Assembly (NCBI GenBank): GCA_036845225.1
Contig: DAIUEJ010000005.1
Span: 10,808-74,807, forward strand
Length of the DNA stretch: 64,000 nucleotides
Reading direction: 5' to 3'
DNA from: Candidatus Anoxymicrobiaceae bacterium
GTDB taxonomy: Bacteria; Actinomycetota; Geothermincolia; Fen-727; Anoxymicrobiaceae
This document shows, one piece after another, positions 359 through 12,920 of this stretch (its first letter is position 1; every line of letters starts with the position of its first letter). The position numbers and the translations under genes were made by a program. Under the pieces are notes generated by a model, which was given only the letters and a program-made list of their open reading frames with translations, did no database searches and was not told where the DNA came from.

Positions 359-378
359 CTAAACTTTTAGGGCGTTCG

Positions 379-477
379 ATGCACCACTGGGGTCAGGCAC
401 CGGTGGTGCATTTTTGATGTTTGACCAGGGAAACGTATTTAAATGCACCACCGGTGCCTGACCCCAGTGGTGCATCC
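379..477. repeat. REP-like element: two inverted copies of a 34-nt hairpin unit (9-bp stem atgcaccac/gtggtgcat, loop tggggtcaggcaccg) separated by a 31-nt spacer, between the convergent gdh and nadE 3' ends
   Basis: Direct reading: 379-412 gatgcaccactggggtcaggcaccggtggtgcat is the reverse complement of 444-477. The loop sequence matches the loops in the inverted repeats flanking the RAYT-like transposase at 21958-22870. Confidence 0.7.
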
Positions 478-4246: not shown

Positions 4247-4292
4247 GGCGATGTTTCGTGACGGTTTCACGAATGTAAAATGTAGGTAACAG
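4247..4292 (-). promoter_or_regulatory. Putative nitrogen-regulator (GlnR-type) operator upstream of amtB: GTTAC-n6-TTTAC-n6-GAAAC-n6-GAAAC, followed by ATCGCC
   Basis: Minus strand reads tGTTACctacatTTTACattcgtGAAACcgtcacGAAACATCGCC. The same GAAAC-n6-GAAACATCGCC core occurs upstream of glnA (37883-37917). Confidence 0.45.
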
Positions 4293-4306
4293 CCGAATGC
4301 GCCTCC

Positions 4307-4360
4307 GAGGTCAGGCCCCCGTGGTGCATTTTGACATCAGGCTCAGGACCGGTCAGGGAA
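4307..4360. repeat. Degenerate copy of the REP-like element (ggtcaggcccccgtggtgcattttga...gaccggtcagggaa)
   Basis: Aligns with 391-435 (ggtcaggcaccggtggtgcatttttga...gaccagggaa). Confidence 0.5.
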
Positions 4361-4423
4361 GAGGCGTTCCCGGTGGGTGCTTTCGGGCGCGTTGCTTCTC
4401 TACGGCGTCTGTGACGCCCATCA

Positions 4424-5242
4424 GTGCCTTCTCGAGTGCCGCCCCGTAGCCCGCGCCGACTGCTCCATGAACAGCCCCCTGCGAGCGCCCTCAGGGCGCG
4501 TGCTACGCGATGCGGGGTCAAGGGCTCCGGGGTCCGGCTCGCACTCGGCGCCCAGCAGTCTTCCCCAGTAATACGGGGTTGTGAGCTCTACTTCCGAGGG
4601 GATGCCGCCTTCGCCTCACCGGGCGTCTACGAATACCTGGAGCAGAACCACATCCTCTACGCCACCAGACTTCCCGCAAACCAGGTACTCTCCAGGGATA
4701 TAGAGCACCTCATGACCAGGCCGGTGGGAAGACCTCCCAAGAGACCAAGGGTTTTCTACCATGACTTCTCCTACCAGGCCACCTCCTGGAGCACGCCCAG
4801 GAGGGTGATTGCGAAGGTGGAGTGGCACGCAGGTGAGCTGTTCCCGAGGGTTGGCTTTATCGTGACCAACATGACCGCGAAAGCCAAGAACGTGGTGAGG
4901 TTCTACAACAAGCGCGGCAACTGCGAGCAGTGGATAAAGGAAGGGAAACGCACCCTTACCTGGACCAGGTTATCCTGCACCAGGTTCTCCTCCAACCAGG
5001 TGAGGCTCGCGCTGTTCGTCCTGGCGTACAACATGGGAAACTTCCTCCGCCGTTTCGCCCTTCCGAGTCAGGTCTCGCACTGGTCGCTATCCAGCATCCA
5101 GCTCAAGCTCATAAAGATTGGAGCAAAGGTGATGAGCCATTCGAGGAGGACGATCTTCCAGATGGCGGAGGTCGCCGTCCCTGAGGCGCTATTCGCCGCT
5201 CTCCTGGAGCGTATACGTTGCCTGGTCGCCGCGCCGACTTGA
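4424..5242 (+). pseudogene. IS1380-family DDE transposase, N-terminally truncated remnant (C-terminal ~215 aa only)
   Basis: Motifs RVIAKVEWHAGELFPRVGFIVTNM...FYNKRGNCEQWIKEGKRTLTWTRLSCTRFSSNQVRLALFVLAYNMGNFLRR match the IS1380-family C-terminus. The N-terminal ~60 residues of the ORF are non-homologous read-through, and no N-terminal transposase half is present. Confidence 0.7.
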
Positions 5243-5358
5243 TAGGCACAGAGGTTGTTCACATGAACGCAGAGATAACGGTCAATGGTCCTCAATCGTC
5301 ATCGAAGACGGGCTCGACAGGCAGGCGGTAACTTCGAGAAAGAGAGACGAGGGCGAGA

Positions 5359-5637
5359 TTGCGCCTCGGTAATCGGCTTCAAGGGGGTATAATGATGGCG
5401 TCGGCGGCTGGAAATGGGAAATGTCAGCTGAAAGTAATAGGCCGCTTGAAACCCCCCTTGTTTTCACCAGAAGAAACATGGGAGAAGATTGGGAATGTCG
5501 ACAACGTGGTTTTCCCTACCGGAGCAGTGGTTAGAAATGGCCGTGTCTATATTTACTATGGCGCTGCCGACAAGTTGATTGCCGCGAGATCTGTTGATCT
5601 GGCAGAGCTGTTGACCAAACTCAAGAGAAGCCCGTGA
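5359..5637 (+). pseudogene. Glycoside hydrolase family 130 (GH130), C-terminal fragment only
   Basis: NVVFPTGAVVRNGRVYIYYGAADKLIAARSVDLAELL matches the conserved GH130 C-terminus and is paralogous to the full GH130 gene at 8969-9910. Only ~90 aa are present, directly after the IS remnant. Confidence 0.6.
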
Positions 5638-5641
5638 GACC

Positions 5642-7921
5642 ATGAGCCCCCAACAGCAGAATAGATACTGGATAGTCTGTGTTTCTACCTTCCCGCCGCG
5701 ACAGTGCGGCATCGCCACCTTTACCACTGACCTTACCAATGCTGTTGACAAGATGTTCGAACCGTCGATTAGGTCAAAGATTATTGCGATGAATCGTACT
5801 GAAGTAAGTCATTATTCCTACCCTGACAAAGTAATATCCCAGATATGTCAACCCCGTGAAAAAGACTACGTTGATGCTGCCGACAAGCTCAACCGGCTCG
5901 AAAAGGTAAGACTTGTCAACATCCAACATGAATTCGGGATCTTCGGAGGGGAGAACGGTTCACACATACTTCTCTTTTTAGAAAAACTTCAGAAACCGCT
6001 TGTTGCCACATTACACACAGTTCTTCCCACTCCAGACGAAGGAATGCGCAACGTTGTTCAAGCTATCATGGAGTATTCAAAAGGAATAATCGTTATGACG
6101 CACTACTCAAAGAAGATTCTCGAAAGAGATTACGGGTTGGATCCTAATCGAATTCAAGTTATTCCTCATGGGATCCACCATGTTCCCTATAGAAATACCA
6201 AGAAAGCCAAGTCTGCACTTGGCTTTTCTGGCAAATTGATCCTTTCAACCATTGGATTCCTTAGCCCCGGCAAGGGGATCGAGTACGTGATCGAGGCCTT
6301 GCCGCCGGTAGTACGGAAGTTCCCTAATGTTCGATATCTCGTCGCCGGCATTAGCCATCCTCTTGTTGTGAAACAGGAAGGCGAAAGTTACCGTAATTCT
6401 CTCATAAAGAAAGTTTACGAACTCGGTTTGAGCGAATACGTTCTTTTCGACAACACCTATTATGATCTAAATGACCTTCTAGAGTTCCTATCGGCTACCG
6501 ATATCTATATATCTCCCTCCTTAGATCCAAACCAGACCGTCTCCGGCACTTTGTCTTACGCCCTTGGCAGCGGTCGTCCGGTAATATCCACGGCTTTTGC
6601 CCAGGCCAGAGAGGACATTACTGATGATGTAGGCGTATTAGTTGACTTTAAGAACCCGCAGGCTTTCAGTGATGCCATCATTGAATTGTTGGGCAATGAT
6701 CAGCTTCGTCTGCAAATGGGCAAGAGATCTTATCTACACACAAGACACATGACCTGGCAAAATGTTGCCCTTTCCTACGTGAAATACTTCTCTCAATTTG
6801 TGCCGGAGCTAACCCTGGCACAAAGGGAACTTCCACGCGCAAAGCTTACGCATCTGGCTAAATTGACTGACAACTTCGGCATTATTCAGTTTGCCGAGTT
6901 TGCCGAGCCGGATCTTTCCTCTGGATATACCTTGGACGATAATGCCCGGGCTTTGGTTGTTGCCGCGCTCGATTATGAACAACACAGAACCTCTTCTTCA
7001 CTAAGTCTCGTCTCCATCTACCTCGACTTTCTTTATCGGGTAGCCAAACCCGATGGTTATTTCGATAACTATGTCAATCCAAACCACACTATTGACGAAC
7101 AGAGGAATAGCCGTGAATACTCAGAAGATGCCAGCGCCAGGGGACTATATGCGCTTGCCGTGGTCTCAACTACCAAACAAATCCCCGGACGCTTGAGAAA
7201 AAAGGCCCATTACTTGTTTGAGCAGAGTTTCCGGAAAGACATTGCTTTCTCCTCACCTCGTGCTATCGCTTCTTATATCAAGGCCCTCGCAAGTTTGCTT
7301 TCGAGATGGGAGGATGCAAGAACGCTTGCTGCACTAAAACACAACTGTGAAAAACTCTTGGCTCTATACGAGAAGAATCACTCACAGGACTGGGAGTGGT
7401 TCGAGCCTTATCTGACGTATTCAAATGCTCTCATGCCAGAAGCTCTTCTACACGGATGCAGAATAACCGGTGCGAGAAAATATTTCGAAGTGTCTGAAAA
7501 AACCCTCAGCTTCTTGATTAAGCATACCTTCAATGACAGCATGTACATCCCCATAGGCCAAGACGGCTGGTTTGTAAGGGGAGAGACGAGACAGTATTTT
7601 GACCAACAGCCCGAGGATGTTGCTGCTACCGTAGTAGCTCTCAACGCGATGTTTCGGGTAACGAACGAGGAGCATTACAGGGAATTGGCATACAAAGCAT
7701 TCAACTGGTTCCTGGGAGATAATATGCTTGGGCAGGTTGTCTATGATCACACCACCGGAGGATGTCATGATGGGCTTGGGAAAAAGTCCATTAACTTGAA
7801 TCAGGGAGCTGAATCTACCATTTCTTGCCTTTTGGCCCGTTTTTCATTCGACTGCTCAAAGTCAACTAAAAATTCCCTAGTTACAAACAATCATCGTCTC
7901 CCAATCACCCGGTTAGCATAA
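5642..7921 (+). CDS. Bifunctional-architecture protein: N-terminal GT4 (group 1) glycosyltransferase plus C-terminal (alpha/alpha)6 six-hairpin glycosidase-like domain
   Basis: 759 aa. N-terminal WIVCVSTFPPRQCGIATFTTDL and the Glycos_transf_1 region (GKGIEYVIEAL...). The C-terminal half has repeated helical-hairpin signatures (DNARALVVAALD, GLYALAVV, NQGAES). Confidence 0.6.
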   Translation: MSPQQQNRYWIVCVSTFPPRQCGIATFTTDLTNAVDKMFEPSIRSKIIAMNRTEVSHYSYPDKVISQICQPREKDYVDAADKLNRLEKVRLVNIQHEFGIFGGENGSHILLFLEKLQKPLVATLHTVLPTPDEGMRNVVQAIMEYSKGIIVMTHYSKKILERDYGLDPNRIQVIPHGIHHVPYRNTKKAKSALGFSGKLILSTIGFLSPGKGIEYVIEALPPVVRKFPNVRYLVAGISHPLVVKQEGESYRNSLIKKVYELGLSEYVLFDNTYYDLNDLLEFLSATDIYISPSLDPNQTVSGTLSYALGSGRPVISTAFAQAREDITDDVGVLVDFKNPQAFSDAIIELLGNDQLRLQMGKRSYLHTRHMTWQNVALSYVKYFSQFVPELTLAQRELPRAKLTHLAKLTDNFGIIQFAEFAEPDLSSGYTLDDNARALVVAALDYEQHRTSSSLSLVSIYLDFLYRVAKPDGYFDNYVNPNHTIDEQRNSREYSEDASARGLYALAVVSTTKQIPGRLRKKAHYLFEQSFRKDIAFSSPRAIASYIKALASLLSRWEDARTLAALKHNCEKLLALYEKNHSQDWEWFEPYLTYSNALMPEALLHGCRITGARKYFEVSEKTLSFLIKHTFNDSMYIPIGQDGWFVRGETRQYFDQQPEDVAATVVALNAMFRVTNEEHYRELAYKAFNWFLGDNMLGQVVYDHTTGGCHDGLGKKSINLNQGAESTISCLLARFSFDCSKSTKNSLVTNNHRLPITRLA

Positions 7922-7931
7922 AGGGTTAGCT

Positions 7932-8966
7932 ATGCGCATTGCGATGCTCTCTCCGATTGCTTGGCGCACGCCGCCGCAACATTACGGCCCGTGGGAAAGC
8001 GTGGTCTCCCTTTTGACCGAGGGGCTGGTCTCGCGCGGCTATGATGTTACCCTCTTTGCGACCGGTGATTCGCAAACAAGCGGCAAGCTCCATGCCGTTT
8101 GCGCGCGGGGCTATGAAGAAGACCTCTCCATTATGCCAAAAGTATGGGAGGGCCTGCACATTTCGGAACTCTTCGAGCATGCTGAAGATTTCGATATTAT
8201 CCATAACAATTTTGACTTTCTACCTCTGACATACACCGGCCTTACCACCACCCCGGTCGTTACTACTATTCACGGCTTTTCATCGCCCGGGATTTTGCCG
8301 GTTTACAAGAAATACAACGGCAAGGTGTTCTATGTTTCCATCAGCGATGCCGACCGGTCGCCGGATCTGGACTATATCAAAACCATCCATCACGGCATAG
8401 ATATAAAGCAGTTTGATTTTCAGCCTGAACCGGACGATTATCTGCTCTTTTTCGGGCGCATTCACCATGACAAGGGTGCCAGAGAGGCCATTGAAATTGC
8501 CAGGGCTTGCAATAAAAAGCTGATATTGGCGGGAATCATCCAGGATGAAGCCTACTATCACCAGCACATCGAACCGCACCTGGACAACGACAATGCGGTT
8601 TATGTCGGCAGCACCGGGCCGGTTCAGCGCAACCGGCTGCTTGGCAAGGCATGCGCGCTTCTGCATCCCATAAATTTCAATGAGCCTTTCGGCCTGGCCG
8701 TTATCGAGTCCATGGCCTGCGGCACTCCTGTAATCGCCTTTAACAGGGGTAGCATGCCCGAACTTATAGAAAACGGCAAGAACGGTCTTCTCGTAAAAAC
8801 AGTGGATGAGGCAATAGGGGCTGTTGCACGCATAAAAGATATTGACCGGGTATGCTGCCGCCGCCGTGTTGAACAGCATTTCACGGTCGATCGTATGGTT
8901 GAAGAATATATTCAGGTCTATGAAACGGTTCTCGAAAAAACGAAAAGAGAGGACCACCGACACTGA
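7932..8966 (+). CDS. GT4 family glycosyltransferase (group 1)
   Basis: 344 aa: MRIAMLSPIAW...EPFGLAVIESMACGTPVIAFNRGSMPELIENGKNGLLV, the canonical GT4 C-terminal domain. Confidence 0.8.
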   Translation: MRIAMLSPIAWRTPPQHYGPWESVVSLLTEGLVSRGYDVTLFATGDSQTSGKLHAVCARGYEEDLSIMPKVWEGLHISELFEHAEDFDIIHNNFDFLPLTYTGLTTTPVVTTIHGFSSPGILPVYKKYNGKVFYVSISDADRSPDLDYIKTIHHGIDIKQFDFQPEPDDYLLFFGRIHHDKGAREAIEIARACNKKLILAGIIQDEAYYHQHIEPHLDNDNAVYVGSTGPVQRNRLLGKACALLHPINFNEPFGLAVIESMACGTPVIAFNRGSMPELIENGKNGLLVKTVDEAIGAVARIKDIDRVCCRRRVEQHFTVDRMVEEYIQVYETVLEKTKREDHRH

Positions 8967-8968
8967 CT

Positions 8969-9910
8969 ATGACTACTCAATATCCCATTATAAAACGTTA
9001 TAAAATAAATCCCATTCTCACAAAAGATGATGTCCCCTACCCTGTAGCCACGGTCCACAATGCCGGCATAGTCAGGCATGGCGGCCGCTACATTATGCTG
9101 TTCAGGTCGCACCGTTACAACGGACGCTCCATCATCGGCAGGGCCGACAGCGATGATGGTTTTTCCTTCACTGTCCATCCCAAACCCTTTCTCATACCTG
9201 CAAAGGACAACATGTTTGCAGAATATGAAGAGTTCGGAGTCGAGGACCTGAGAATCTGCCCGGTAGAGGACGACTACCTGCTTACCTACAGCGCGTATTC
9301 CCGTCACGGCGTTCGGACTGCCCTTGCGCGCACCAGAGATTTTGAAAAAGTTGAACGCATTGCGCTTATAACCCAGGCCGACCTTCGCAACGTCGTCATT
9401 TTCCCTGTAAAGTTCGGTGGCAGGTATGCGCGTCTTGACCGGCCACATTCCGAAATTTCACCCTGGTCTATCTGGATTTCCTATTCCCCCGACCTGGTTC
9501 ACTGGGGTGATTCACGGGTGATTATGAAGCCGGTTCCCTATCATTGGGATGGAATGAAAATCGGTCCCGGCGCACCGCCCTTCAAGACCGACAAGGGATG
9601 GCTGCATATTTACCATGGGGTCTTTATGACCATGGCTGGGGCGGTATATCGCCTTGGTGCGGCCCTGCATGACCTTAATGATCCGGCAGAAATCATCGGG
9701 GTTTCCGATCAGTGGATACTGCAGCCCGAGGATCCCTGGGAGGTAAGCGGCTATGTGCCCAATGTTGTTTTTAGCTGCGGCGCTGTTCCTGAAGACGACG
9801 GTACGGTAAAAATATACTGGGGCGGTGCTGATACGGTTATGTGTGCCGGTACGGCAGTGATTGATGACCTTGTACAATTATGTCTTACAAATACCAGGCC
9901 GGCGCTGTAA
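8969..9910 (+). CDS. GH130 family glycoside hydrolase / beta-mannoside phosphorylase-like
   Basis: 313 aa with a GH130 five-bladed propeller profile (ATVHNAGIV, LLTYSAYS, KGWLHIYHGV, NVVFSCGAV...IYWGGADTVMCAGTA). Confidence 0.8.
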   Translation: MTTQYPIIKRYKINPILTKDDVPYPVATVHNAGIVRHGGRYIMLFRSHRYNGRSIIGRADSDDGFSFTVHPKPFLIPAKDNMFAEYEEFGVEDLRICPVEDDYLLTYSAYSRHGVRTALARTRDFEKVERIALITQADLRNVVIFPVKFGGRYARLDRPHSEISPWSIWISYSPDLVHWGDSRVIMKPVPYHWDGMKIGPGAPPFKTDKGWLHIYHGVFMTMAGAVYRLGAALHDLNDPAEIIGVSDQWILQPEDPWEVSGYVPNVVFSCGAVPEDDGTVKIYWGGADTVMCAGTAVIDDLVQLCLTNTRPAL

Positions 9911-10283
9911 AAAAGGTTAAGAGGACCTTGCCAAGAGCAACCTTCTTGGCGTACTCGCTCCGCTCCCTCTCGAGCTCGTCAGGCCCGAGGAGCGTCATGC
10001 ACCAGGCACCCTCGCGATCGGAGCCATCACAAGCAGCGTTGTCGCAACGATCGCGATCGCATAGTGTGCATTCTCACGTAACTGAACACTGATTCTCATC
10101 TTGCTTGAGCACTTCCGGAATTAGAGGATTCGAACCCTCTCCTGTCGTTTTACCCCGATCAATCACTTCGAGGCCAAGACCCTTGTTGCATTTCGATCTC
10201 ATGCTGAAAGAGCCCAGCGGTAAGGCATAACGCTGGACTAGATTGCGCATCCAGTCTTGAAAGTGAATATCGACTGGGGCTCC

Positions 10284-10334
10284 CCCCGGCCCCCCTGAGT
10301 CGAGGGTTCGAATCCCTCCAGCTCCACCACCAAA
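10284..10334 (+). repeat. Partial, inverted copy of the tRNA-Ala 3' half (acceptor/T-arm plus CCA plus 4 nt), forming a 39-bp perfect inverted repeat with the adjacent tRNA-Ala gene
   Basis: 10296-10334 gagtcgagggttcgaatccctccagctccaccaccaaat is the exact reverse complement of 10363-10400. The upstream ggggctcc mimics a tRNA 5' end, but no D-arm or anticodon arm is present. Confidence 0.55.
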
Positions 10335-10365
10335 TATGAAGGGTGGTCAGGAAGAGTGAAGGATT

Positions 10366-10443
10366 TGGTGGTGGAGCTGGAGGGATTCGAACCCTCGACT
10401 TCTACCCTGCCAAGGTAGCGCTCTCCCCCTGAGCTACAGCCCC
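10366..10443 (-). tRNA. tRNA-Ala (anticodon GGC), G3:U70 present, CCA encoded
   Basis: Minus strand reads GGGGCUGUAGCUCAGGGGGAGAGCGCUACCUUGGCAGGGUAGAAGUCGAGGGUUCGAAUCCCUCCAGCUCCACCA. Clean cloverleaf with anticodon loop UUGGCAG. Confidence 0.85.
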
Positions 10444-10494
10444 ACACGGGTGCAAAAGATGCGAGTGTAATGATAACCGTACCTCAGGAGCCGC

Positions 10495-10950: not shown

Positions 10951-12261
10951 CTATTTGCTCGCATAGTCTTTCCCGACTATCACGCTGATGTCCGAAAGGG
11001 TCTGGGACTGCGGGTGCGCCTCCAGCTTGCCGACCTCCAGCTCGTTGCGCAGCTCCTGCGCGGCCGCCGTAATGGTCTTGTCGTCGCTGTAGACGATTAT
11101 CAGCGTCTCGGCGTGGTCGAAGTTGTCGGCGTTTGAGGAGTTCACTATCTGGTAGCGCGCCATGTCGATGTCGGCGGCGACCCTCTCCCCTATCCCCGGG
11201 ACTCCGCACCCGTTGAGCACTTCGATCTTCACGCGCTTCGACGAGGGCAGGCTCGAGGACGACTTCAGGTAGGACCTGACGAAAGCTGGAAGCGACTCCT
11301 GGTTCACCCTGTGCACGATCGTCTTCTCGAACCGGAACTCTTTGACCGGGACAATGGCGACCTGCAGGCTCTTTCCGCCGAGGGAGGTGAACGCTTTCGC
11401 GATGCCGGCCAGCTCCTTGTTGGAGGCGTCCGTGTCGAAGAGGTTGCCGTTCTTCGCGACGAACTTGTCGATATCGGTGCCTTTGAGGAGGGCAAGCGCC
11501 TCAGGCGTAAACGCGGCCTGCCGCTTCGCGAGGTCAAGCTCTTTTCCTGATGGAGCATAGGTCATGTAAGAGGCCAGGACGCTCGAAGCCAGGTTCTGCT
11601 TGCCCGCTTTCAGGTCGACGTTGACCCCCAGGCTCGGATCCTTGAACGATATCTTCGATATCCCTGCCACGGGGAAATTGGTGCCGAGCTGATTGAGGAT
11701 GATCCGGACGTCCCGATCGGAGGCGAGGACATACCTGTCCACCTGCGTTCCCAGCATGTTCTCGACGGTCACGAGCGTGCTGCTTATCCTGCCCCCGTCG
11801 AGCTCCACCAGGTTTGACATCTCGTCCGTACCCATGCCCGGGGTGGCCACCAGCAGGTCGGTCGGGAATAAGATCAGGCTGCCTGTCTTTGTCTGCCCGT
11901 CGTAGGACGCGAGGACACACGTGGTCAGGACTGTCGCGCCGTTCTGTTGTTTAGTGACGCCGATGAGGTAGTTGGCGGTCTTCTTGCCTTCCGGAAGGAA
12001 ATCGGAGGCAATCACTTTCTTGGAGGACTTGAACGGCCAGGCGTGCTTGCCGAGCCACGAGAACCCGTGCGTGGTCTTGGTCCACGCCTTGTCGAACGGG
12101 TAGACCTTTACCACGGCGCCCAGCAAGACGAATATCGCGATAAGCACCGCGAGGACCACCAGCCACTTCCAGAGCTTTTTCTTCTTCTTCTTGCTGTCGA
12201 GCCGTTTCCTGGTTCGATATCCTACGTATTCTGCCACGCTCTCCACTTCCCGCCGGGGCAC
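10951..12261 (-). CDS. LCP family protein (LytR-CpsA-Psr) with C-terminal LytR_C domain
   Basis: 436 aa with an N-terminal lysine-rich stretch and TM segment followed by an LCP domain. It sits between nadD and rsfS, as in actinobacterial genomes. Confidence 0.7.
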   Translation of the reverse strand: MPRREVESVAEYVGYRTRKRLDSKKKKKKLWKWLVVLAVLIAIFVLLGAVVKVYPFDKAWTKTTHGFSWLGKHAWPFKSSKKVIASDFLPEGKKTANYLIGVTKQQNGATVLTTCVLASYDGQTKTGSLILFPTDLLVATPGMGTDEMSNLVELDGGRISSTLVTVENMLGTQVDRYVLASDRDVRIILNQLGTNFPVAGISKISFKDPSLGVNVDLKAGKQNLASSVLASYMTYAPSGKELDLAKRQAAFTPEALALLKGTDIDKFVAKNGNLFDTDASNKELAGIAKAFTSLGGKSLQVAIVPVKEFRFEKTIVHRVNQESLPAFVRSYLKSSSSLPSSKRVKIEVLNGCGVPGIGERVAADIDMARYQIVNSSNADNFDHAETLIIVYSDDKTITAAAQELRNELEVGKLEAHPQSQTLSDISVIVGKDYASK

Positions 12262-12284
12262 CCGGCGTTGAACTCAATATATTC

Positions 12285-12920
12285 TTATTCGGAAGGCCGC
12301 TGTTCACCTTTCAGGTAGAGGCCTTTCGCCTTTATGTACTCCCACACCGCGTCTCGGACCAGGTACCTGAACGGCCGCCCTTCCGTGGCGCGCGCCCGTA
12401 TGTCCGTCGAGCTTATCGCGAGAGCGGGTATCTCCATGCTATAGACGCTTTCAAGGGCGATCTCGCCCCCGCTGTTGCGCTCCGGAAGAGCCTCGCGCAG
12501 CGTCTCGAGTGGAAAGCCGGGGCGCGTCGCCGCGATGAACTTCGCCTCGGCGAGCAGCTCGGCCGGGTCCTTCCAGGTGAGTATCTCGAGGATGGCGTCG
12601 GCACCGGTTATAAAGAACAGCTCGGCGCCGAGTCCGTGTATCCTGTGGAGCTCCCGGAGGGTATCGACCGTGTAGGAGAGGCCCTCGCGGCCGAGCTCCA
12701 TGTCTGAAACCTCGAGGAACGGGTTGCGGCTGATGGCGAGCTCGACCATCCGCAGCCTGTCGGAGGCCGGGCTGTGCGGACTGTCTGTCTTGTGAGGGGG
12801 CCTCGCGGACGGGATGAAGATGACCTTGTCGAGTTCGAACTGGCAGCGCGCCTCTTCCGCCGTGACGAGGTGGCCTATGTGAATGGGGTCGAACGTCCCC
12901 CCCATTACGCCGATCCTCAA
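12285..12920 (-). CDS. nadD: Nicotinate-nucleotide adenylyltransferase
   Basis: MRIGVMGGTFDPIHIGHL... is the (H/T)xGH nucleotidyltransferase motif; 211 aa. Confidence 0.9.
   Translation of the reverse strand: MRIGVMGGTFDPIHIGHLVTAEEARCQFELDKVIFIPSARPPHKTDSPHSPASDRLRMVELAISRNPFLEVSDMELGREGLSYTVDTLRELHRIHGLGAELFFITGADAILEILTWKDPAELLAEAKFIAATRPGFPLETLREALPERNSGGEIALESVYSMEIPALAISSTDIRARATEGRPFRYLVRDAVWEYIKAKGLYLKGEQRPSE

Follow-up and report, generated by a model that had tools for sequence, protein, structure and literature searches.

A mosaic sugar-metabolism cassette, probably of recent acquisition, beside an IS1380 remnant and a tRNA-trailing element in an uncultured Geothermincolia-like actinobacterium

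We analyzed a 64,000-nucleotide (nt) stretch of DNA, here called the window, from an assembly named Candidatus Anoxymicrobiaceae bacterium (GCA_036845225.1, contig DAIUEJ010000005.1, positions 10,808 to 74,807 of the forward strand), in which a low-GC block at 5431-9921 carries genes of glycan metabolism close to a tRNA-Ala gene. This block is probably a recently acquired, mosaic cassette for cytoplasmic sugar metabolism in an uncultured Geothermincolia-like actinobacterium, and it is associated with a remnant of an IS1380-family insertion sequence (IS). The cassette holds three intact genes, encoding a fusion of a GT4 glycosyltransferase with an (α/α)6-barrel domain, a free GT4 and a complete GH130 protein (GH130b), preceded by the remnant of another GH130 gene (GH130a). 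We refer to the GH130a remnant and the fusion as module A, and to the free GT4 and GH130b as module B. Feature coordinates are collected in Table 1; contigs and loci from other assemblies carry L numbers.

Results

A low-GC block missing from the same site in relatives

The block has a GC content of 48.7%, compared with a mean of 63.3% (standard deviation 1.7, minimum 58.4) in 109 host windows of 2 kb. Values are 46.4% for 5431-7921 (z = -10.1) and 51.6% for 7932-9910 (z = -7.1). The three island genes have 49-59% GC at third codon positions (GC3), compared with 78-86% for the host genes NadE, Amt, RsfS, LCP and PheT, and the only tetranucleotide outlier chunks in the 64 kb are those starting at 5001, 6251 and 7501. 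A preliminary description of this DNA had placed an AT-rich stretch at ~5250-9915 within host DNA of ~67% GC; quantitative sliding-window analysis bears out the large drop and the clearly non-uniform composition (z of -7 to -10), whereas the start moves to 5431 and the host value to ~63%. The IS1380 remnant is outside the low-GC DNA, its composition being host-like (60% GC, GC3 78%). The gene list and tight spacing were described correctly: a GH130 3' fragment, a 759-amino-acid (aa) GT4 fusion, a second GT4 and a complete GH130 follow one another at distances of 4, 10 and 2 nt.

PheT of the window is 67% identical to that of a 'Ca. Geothermincolia' record and 64% identical to that of Ca. Anoxymicrobium. 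A collection of species-representative genomes contained no PheT relative above 51% identity and was of no use for synteny; empty sites were therefore located through exact-protein look-ups and a DNA motif scan. A sister species (L057-L061, PheT 83% identical) has the same order, PheS-PheT-NadD-LCP-RsfS-tRNA-Ala...Amt-PII-NadE, with a gene for a 589-aa AMP-binding protein of the acyl-CoA-synthetase type between the tRNA region and Amt, and lacks the cassette. A third relative (L071), which also lacks it, has tRNA-Ala, the element that trails this tRNA (see below), ~100 bp, the Amt promoter with the conserved motif GTTACCTACATTTTACA, Amt and NadE. Homology of the window to both species ends at ~4290 and returns at ~10279, which delimits the inserted DNA as 4297-10118 (IS remnant, cassette and 197 bp). 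A search of two stretches around its ends, 9906-10125 and 4291-4640, for an open reading frame (ORF), a match to any family or traces of the sister species' AMP-binding gene was negative.

A second copy of block 5431-9921, with 94.4% nucleotide identity, is present in contigs L006-L011, where a pstSCAB-phoU operon flanks it on one side and a PAS histidine-kinase/response-regulator pair on the other; its left edge again adjoins an IS1380 remnant, and no tRNA gene is adjacent. Some of these contigs originate from samples that also yielded the sister species. Synonymous divergence (dS) between the window and L006 is 0.23 for the fusion, 0.02 for the free GT4 and 0.03 for GH130b, whereas host genes of the window and the sister species differ by a dS of ~1.0. 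The 5- to 50-fold lower cassette values indicate arrival or exchange long after the hosts diverged, that is, a recent transfer, and ratios of nonsynonymous to synonymous divergence (dN/dS) of 0.17-0.26 indicate that purifying selection has kept the three intact genes functional. Taken together, absence from the syntenic site in two related species, a copy at another locus and low dS uphold the horizontal acquisition proposed in the preliminary description.

The fusion gene (5642-7921) is far more divergent from its counterparts in L005/L006 (91-94% nucleotide identity, dS 0.14-0.23) than its neighbors are: in the same comparison the IS remnant is 98.9% identical, and GT4 and GH130b are 98.7-99.2% identical with dS of 0.02-0.03. 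This pattern suggests allele replacement of the fusion gene alone.

Since the window is part of a 96.8-kb contig of a metagenome-assembled genome (MAG), a low-GC contig of another organism might have been joined to actinobacterial DNA by assembly or binning, the more so as a perfect 38-nt inverted repeat at 10298-10400 breaks several assemblies. Both junctions are covered, however, by at least eight independent contigs that come from several samples and assemblers (JGI, ENA MEGAHIT, Logan), which refutes this explanation and leaves it a negligible probability. Independent contigs over the window include L001 (253-9916), L002 (5642-10327), L049 (7091-20874), L044 (9790-17014), L013 (9968-13381) and L055 (7156-11687); L049 and L001 are examples of those that cover the junctions.

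Two modules with different histories

Homologues of the fusion number in the hundreds at 69-78% identity, and the named ones belong to Levybacteria, Berkelbacteria or the 'Patescibacteria group'. Patescibacteria-type gene pairs have 36-44% GC and fusions 72-78% identical to that of the window. In Patescibacteria-type genomes (36-40% GC; one contig of 925 kb), an intact GH130 gene for 336-341 aa always precedes the fusion, an XRE regulator is often found upstream, and manC is sometimes close by. The GH130 fragment of the window is 65-68% identical to the C-termini of such intact GH130a proteins (L014, L017, L019) and only 39% identical to GH130b. It is thus the remnant of a different paralogue, not a duplicate, and the cassette duplication that had been considered for this fragment is contradicted. 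A literature search found no description of a GH130-GT4 cassette in Patescibacteria. In L014 (2092-5330), as well as in L015 and L016, the GH130a-fusion pair stands alone, adjoining a gene of the DNA methyltransferase/restriction type.

Module B has other relatives. In an Ignavibacteriaceae locus (L043), GT4 and GH130b are 83% and 87% identical to those of the window at the amino acid level (82% at the nucleotide level), whereas the fusion paralogue upstream of them is only 38% identical to the window fusion. GH130b falls into a 90%-identity cluster of 872 members, among them records from Ignavibacteriaceae and Zixibacteria. Locus L043 also encodes a third GH130 (11112-12587; 491 aa with a long N-terminal extension), giving the order fusion-GT4-GH130b-GH130c. 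While the foreign origin and mosaic composition of the block are direct observations, the donor phyla are inferred from these sequence relationships.

IS1380 remnants upstream of the cassette

The transposase gene on the left of the block matches the Pfam family DDE_Tnp_1_4 (PF13701, 2.8e-66) at profile positions 212-433 of 435, with positions 1-211 missing, and the NCBIfam IS1380 model (NF033539) at 186.3 bits against a cut-off of 180. It thus represents only the C-terminal half, in agreement with the 5' truncation noted in the preliminary description, and the IS is a remnant rather than a complete or active element: neither a pair of inverted repeats nor a target duplication of 4-5 bp was found. 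Alignment of the regions upstream of the cassette in the window, L005, L003 and L008 reveals three IS1380 remnants, which are 76-80% identical to one another and share one orientation, all reading towards the cassette. Their junctions with GH130a differ: 5430/5431 in the window, ~70 bp further into the gene in L008, and a site corresponding to window position 5547 in L003, where the cassette is 99.8% identical to that of the window despite the different junction. The block common to the window and L006/L008 begins at 5431. The copies have also decayed differently, the window retaining profile positions 212-433 and L008 retaining 3-131 and 378-434 after an internal deletion. The suggestion that an IS truncated the upstream GH130 gene holds, as this gene is cut off at the end of the IS1380 element. 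The host-like GC content of the remnants suggests that they belong to the actinobacterial mobilome and met the cassette after its arrival.

ISEcp1 is a member of the IS1380 family and mobilizes downstream DNA through one-ended transposition (PMC12589106). The units that it forms with blaCTX-M genes resemble the present arrangement in that the cargo is directly preceded by an IS1380-family element oriented towards it, the junction between IS and cargo varies, the IS and its cargo occur as a unit at unrelated loci, and the cargo derives from the chromosome of another lineage. The differences are that the cargo here is a three-gene sugar cassette in environmental Actinomycetota and not a resistance gene in Enterobacterales, and that here the IS copies are defective and the left inverted repeat, the alternative right inverted repeat and the 5-bp duplication could not be shown. 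By this analogy, IS-driven movement of the cassette through capture of the ISEcp1 type appears to have an even chance or somewhat better.

A competing explanation invokes transformation or conjugation, followed by homologous or illegitimate recombination, as the way in which the cassette moved, and regards the IS1380 remnants as bystanders that inserted into a dispensable gene. It would account for the fact that every IS copy seen is truncated or internally deleted and that inverted repeats and target-site duplications, sought in L008 and the window, gave nothing convincing; no convincing sequence resembling a right inverted repeat was found at 9905-9925 either, and the left ends of the IS are lost or undefinable. 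Recombination does act here, since strains have exchanged the fusion without the DNA on either side (94% identity within an otherwise 99% identical region), and module B is far better conserved than module A. On the other hand, three independent IS1380 insertions of the same orientation within ~190 bp upstream of the fusion are hard to ascribe to chance, and at both known loci the foreign DNA is bounded on its left by the IS remnant. We therefore regard recombination with bystander IS copies as unlikely, although worth serious consideration, and favor mobilization by IS1380.

Predicted functions of the cassette proteins

Both GT4 proteins contain Glyco_transf_4 and Glycos_transf_1 domains above Pfam cut-offs and have the GT-B fold. 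The free GT4 aligns end to end with TeGSS (PDB 7FG9), a protein of the same size (residues 1-338, 285.7 bits, E = 4.5e-84), and keeps its catalytic residues Tyr18 and Arg179. TeGSS is an α-1,2-glucosyltransferase that uses UDP-glucose and sucrose (PMC9909042). The free GT4 is accordingly predicted, by homology, to be an α-1,2-glucosyltransferase similar to glucosylsucrose synthase, with the difference that the cassette has no gene for sucrose synthesis and that GT4 is paired with a GH130 phosphorylase. The six-hairpin C-terminal domain of the fusion indeed has the (α/α)6-barrel fold. Its closest known counterparts are YPO2471 (PDB 7TEM), a protein with no known function, and two groups of enzymes to which it is only 9-15% identical, the sugar epimerases and isomerases of the AGE family and the GH76 mannanases; it differs from all these in being fused to a GT4.

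The best PDB matches of GH130b are TM1225, Lin0857, a β-1,2-oligomannan phosphorylase and UhgbMP. Aligned with UhgbMP, TM1225 and Lin0857 under the residue scheme of Li et al. (PMC7660257), it conserves the proton-donor Asp, Arg168, His231, Arg59 and Asp304, lacks a catalytic base, and carries Glu in place of Tyr103 and Arg where the scheme has Arg150. This Glu/Arg combination is a β-1,3 signature and predicts a phosphorylase of that type, whereas Patescibacteria GH130a proteins, with Glu/Lys, bear a predicted β-1,2 signature. Both GH130 types keep the phosphorylase residues and score below NCBIfam equivalog cut-offs. GH130b shares fold, family, proton donor, phosphate-binding Arg and His and the lack of a signal peptide with characterized GH130 phosphorylases (Teth514_1788/1789, Lin0857, TM1225, UhgbMP); its gene is linked to GT4 genes and those of the cassette do not form part of a mannan-uptake locus. 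GH130 enzymes of the β-1,2 and β-1,3 types also use GDP-mannose weakly (PMC12814180).

The preliminary description had envisaged synthesis and phosphorolytic recycling of a β-mannoside. The phosphorylase half of this proposal fits the conserved GH130 residues. The synthetic half does not: GT4 enzymes are retaining and form α-linkages, so the glycosyltransferases cannot make the β-mannoside that a GH130 cleaves. The most economical alternative, tentative and with a little less than an even chance, is a cytoplasmic pathway for a mixed α/β oligosaccharide, serving as compatible solute or reserve, in which GH130b would add or remove β-mannose via mannose-1-phosphate. Mannogen enzymes of Leishmania, which derive from GH130, offer a parallel in that their genes were also gained by transfer; there they serve an intracellular mannoside reserve.

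The cassette might instead build or remodel a cell-surface glycan. JGI annotation labels the GT4 enzymes as 'involved in cell wall biosynthesis', the cassette has an LCP-family gene at a distance of 1 kb, and the fusion is unusually divergent between strains, as surface-glycan genes often are. However, the LCP gene is resident host DNA, the N-termini of the three proteins show by inspection no signal peptide or membrane segment, and no flippase, polymerase or polyprenyl-phosphate enzyme is encoded. GH130 phosphorylases need cytoplasmic phosphate (PMC7660257), and the 285-bit match of the free GT4 is to an α-1,2-glucosyltransferase of soluble sugars. A role in surface glycans is thus quite unlikely, and a soluble cytoplasmic sugar is the preferred product.

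The tRNA-Ala gene as a neighbor of the island

On its right, the island is followed by a tRNA-Ala gene (ARAGORN) whose 3' end faces it, as had been described. The preliminary description had seen in this the classical signature of a tRNA island, which would make the cassette the residue of an element that carried an integrase and had recombined with the tRNA-Ala 3' end. Beyond the orientation of the tRNA, this explanation can draw on three tRNA-derived sequences that lie within 320 bp (the tRNA itself, a 38-nt inverted copy and a T-arm-like direct repeat at 10123-10139), and on strains of the same species that carry other cargo from exactly 10118, beside the T-arm-like repeat, which fits some site-specific process. 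Atypical composition, absence from close relatives and variable cargo are likewise shared with integrase-mediated tRNA islands.

Other observations run counter to it. All ORFs of 4297-10118 are accounted for and none encodes an integrase or recombinase, nor is there one near the island. The 3' end of tRNA-Ala has no copy at the left boundary (including 4300-5300, where direct repeats had been anticipated) or elsewhere in the 64 kb. The repeats next to the tRNA belong to a resident element, which stands between tRNA and island and which island-free relatives (the sister species and L071) carry with the same tRNA repeats; the shared block ends 447 bp from the tRNA; and the cassette of L006-L011 occupies a locus without a tRNA. 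Consequently the tRNA-island interpretation is largely refuted and very unlikely: the tRNA-Ala gene is a neighbor of the island and not its attachment site, and the variable boundary is the distal repeat of the resident element.

A family of structured elements trailing tRNA genes

The resident element consists, from the tRNA outwards, of a spacer of 27 nt (10336-10362), an inverted repeat of the 3' end of tRNA-Ala (10298-10335; 38 nt, 100% complementary), the first 18 nt of a core (10280-10297), a segment that we call body A (~10148-10279) and the T-arm-like direct repeat. We compared it with 20 further loci besides L048, L057 and L071. When metagenome contigs were scanned for its motif, elements of this architecture turned up behind the genes for tRNA-Ala(GGC), Ala(CGC), Gly(GCC), Gly(TCC), Lys(CTT), Val(CAC), His(GTG) and Pro(TGG), and the family (loci including L048, L057-L061 and L062-L088) is therefore associated with at least eight different tRNA genes. 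Its members extend over ~240-300 nt directly 3' of the tRNA. Read on the strand of the tRNA, each begins with a spacer of ~30-35 nt that is variable and poor in G. Next comes an inverted repeat of the 3' end of the tRNA that it follows, then a core of ~165 nt, which is conserved and forms several covarying hairpins, and finally a direct but imperfect repeat of T-arm and acceptor strand.

Covariation in an alignment of 12 sequences supports the structure: the 52 predicted pairs are 95.2% paired, compared with 46-51% when partners are slid, and there are 52 double-change cells against 5-14 in slid controls, values that 0 of 500 shuffles reached. G·U pairs favor the tRNA strand. The element matches no Rfam family, a scan of viral contigs with its motif returned chance matches inside ORFs only, and the literature yielded no description of a tRNA-trailing element of this kind. 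If it were co-transcribed with the tRNA, the tRNA 3' half would, according to prediction, be sequestered in a hairpin of 38 bp.

Of the core, only the two ends persist in the window copy; the middle has been swapped for another structured module that is also inserted in L067, L068 and L073. In those three loci, moreover, the 5' half of a tRNA-Ser-like sequence (acceptor strand and D-arm) is joined to the 3' portion of a trailing element with body A, and the matching tRNA-Ser-like 3' acceptor strand stands at the end; each is probably a rearranged locus.

The spacer (~27-35 nt; compared in the window, L012, L013, L044-L056 and L057) occurs in three unrelated versions among ~99% identical strains, and the sister species has a fourth. 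Each of them contains little G on the tRNA strand, and the flanking arms of 32-38 nt are identical or nearly so. Strain L050, which is 99.4% identical on the RsfS side, carries a different low-GC cargo from exactly 10118, the end of the T-arm-like repeat, in place of all that the window has to the left of this position; this cargo (L050, 6617-9759) encodes a 528-aa DDE_Tnp_1 transposase of the IS4-like type and a 284-aa ORF without a family, and is followed by a stretch resembling the right end of IS1380.

On this basis, the ~250 nt beside tRNA-Ala may be a decayed member of an apparently undescribed element family of this actinobacterial lineage. Such elements might be RNA switches in the 3' trailer of tRNAs, acting through alternative pairing of the tRNA 3' half, or footprints left by small non-coding elements that enter tRNA genes in hairpin form by a CTX phage-like route; the distal repeat may mark a recombination hotspot used by the glycan cassette, by the IS4-like element of L050 and by the acyl-CoA-synthetase gene of the sister species. 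We consider this possible rather than probable.

Three loci (L074, L076 and L087) have the 3' half of tRNA-Lys, from the anticodon loop onwards, together with a trailing element behind three unrelated sequences; they would resemble attR ends if other elements had integrated into the anticodon loop of tRNA-Lys. Two annotations of the region were rejected. A 'permuted tmRNA' called by ARAGORN at 9904-10461 is an artifact of tRNA-Ala and the inverted copy, with an Rfam tmRNA score of 31-42 bits against a threshold of 47 and an implausible tag peptide. A 'GGGGCT' at 10276, taken for the 5' acceptor strand of an alanine minihelix, proved in additional copies to be the stump of a G/C hairpin of the core.

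Features of the region

Table 1. Positions and strands of the features at the island in the window, with the basis of each call.
Feature	Position	Strand	Basis or remark
IS1380-family IS remnant, 5'-truncated, including the C-terminal half of the transposase	4297..5430	+	ORF 4424-5242; right end of the IS at 5430
GH130a C-terminal remnant, ~68 aa, cut off by the IS	5431..5637 (ORF 5359-5637)	+	Pfam GH130 profile 255-319/320
759-aa fusion of N-terminal GT4 and C-terminal (α/α)6-barrel domain; module A, Patescibacteria-type	5642..7921	+	
344-aa GT4, homologue of glucosylsucrose synthase; module B	7932..8966	+	Match to PDB 7fg9 (TeGSS)
313-aa GH130b, predicted cytoplasmic β-mannoside phosphorylase; module B	8969..9910	+	Pfam GH130 3e-53
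197 bp of lineage-specific DNA separating the cassette block (which ends at 9921) from the tRNA-trailing element	9922..10118	.	Not in L006/L008
Degenerate tRNA-trailing structured element	10119..10368	-	Repeats and comparison with other loci
tRNA-Ala(GGC), resident host gene	10369..10443	-	ARAGORN; same place in the sister and third species

Elsewhere in the window, just downstream of NadE (378-476, plus strand), there is a long hairpin that matches miRNA-precursor models at 45 bits.

Discussion

The events leading to the present arrangement can be pictured as follows. Module A would derive from a conserved GH130-fusion gene pair of Patescibacteria, whereas module B would be a GT4/GH130b pair that circulates almost unchanged among unrelated phyla. 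Resident IS1380-family elements of high-GC actinobacteria would have inserted repeatedly into GH130a, destroying it, and most probably moved the downstream genes as an ISEcp1-type transposition unit; possibly they also drive expression of the cassette. The unit would have landed between the Amt promoter and the resident element trailing tRNA-Ala, the tRNA itself not being the target. The most likely task of the three intact genes is synthesis and turnover of a soluble oligosaccharide, a compatible solute or reserve, to which the two retaining GT4 enzymes would add α-linked sugars, while GH130b would attach or release a β-mannosyl unit via mannose-1-phosphate.

Several points weigh against parts of this picture, in addition to the defective state of all IS copies seen and the lack of convincing inverted repeats and target-site duplications. 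The nearest relative of the fusion outside the host (78% identity, L014-L016) is itself a low-GC insert (40-44%) in a host of 51-58% GC, so the module A pair has been transferred more than once, independently. Donor labels come from MAG annotations, which may be wrong for mobile DNA, and the attribution of the L006-type contigs to the sister species is based on nothing more than shared samples and similar GC. As for the product, the cassette contains no transporter, regulator or sugar-nucleotide gene, which makes the product a guess.

As a genomic island the cassette is of an ordinary kind; the element trailing tRNA genes is the newer item, and represents a candidate new class of structured RNA or mobile DNA. 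The cassette nevertheless provides a population-resolved case of recent gene flow between phyla into an uncultured actinobacterial class, complete with an empty site, a second site and a divergence clock, and it points to capture and movement of neighboring chromosomal genes by IS1380 elements beyond the clinical setting of ISEcp1 and CTX-M. Two gene pairs emerge as targets for biochemistry: the widespread, uncharacterized Patescibacteria pair of GH130 and GT4-(α/α)6 fusion, sometimes found beside manC, and the promiscuous GT4 and GH130 pair. The product of both may be a compatible solute or a carbohydrate reserve. Finally, Patescibacteria-type genes in a free-living actinobacterium could trace a physical association between the two.

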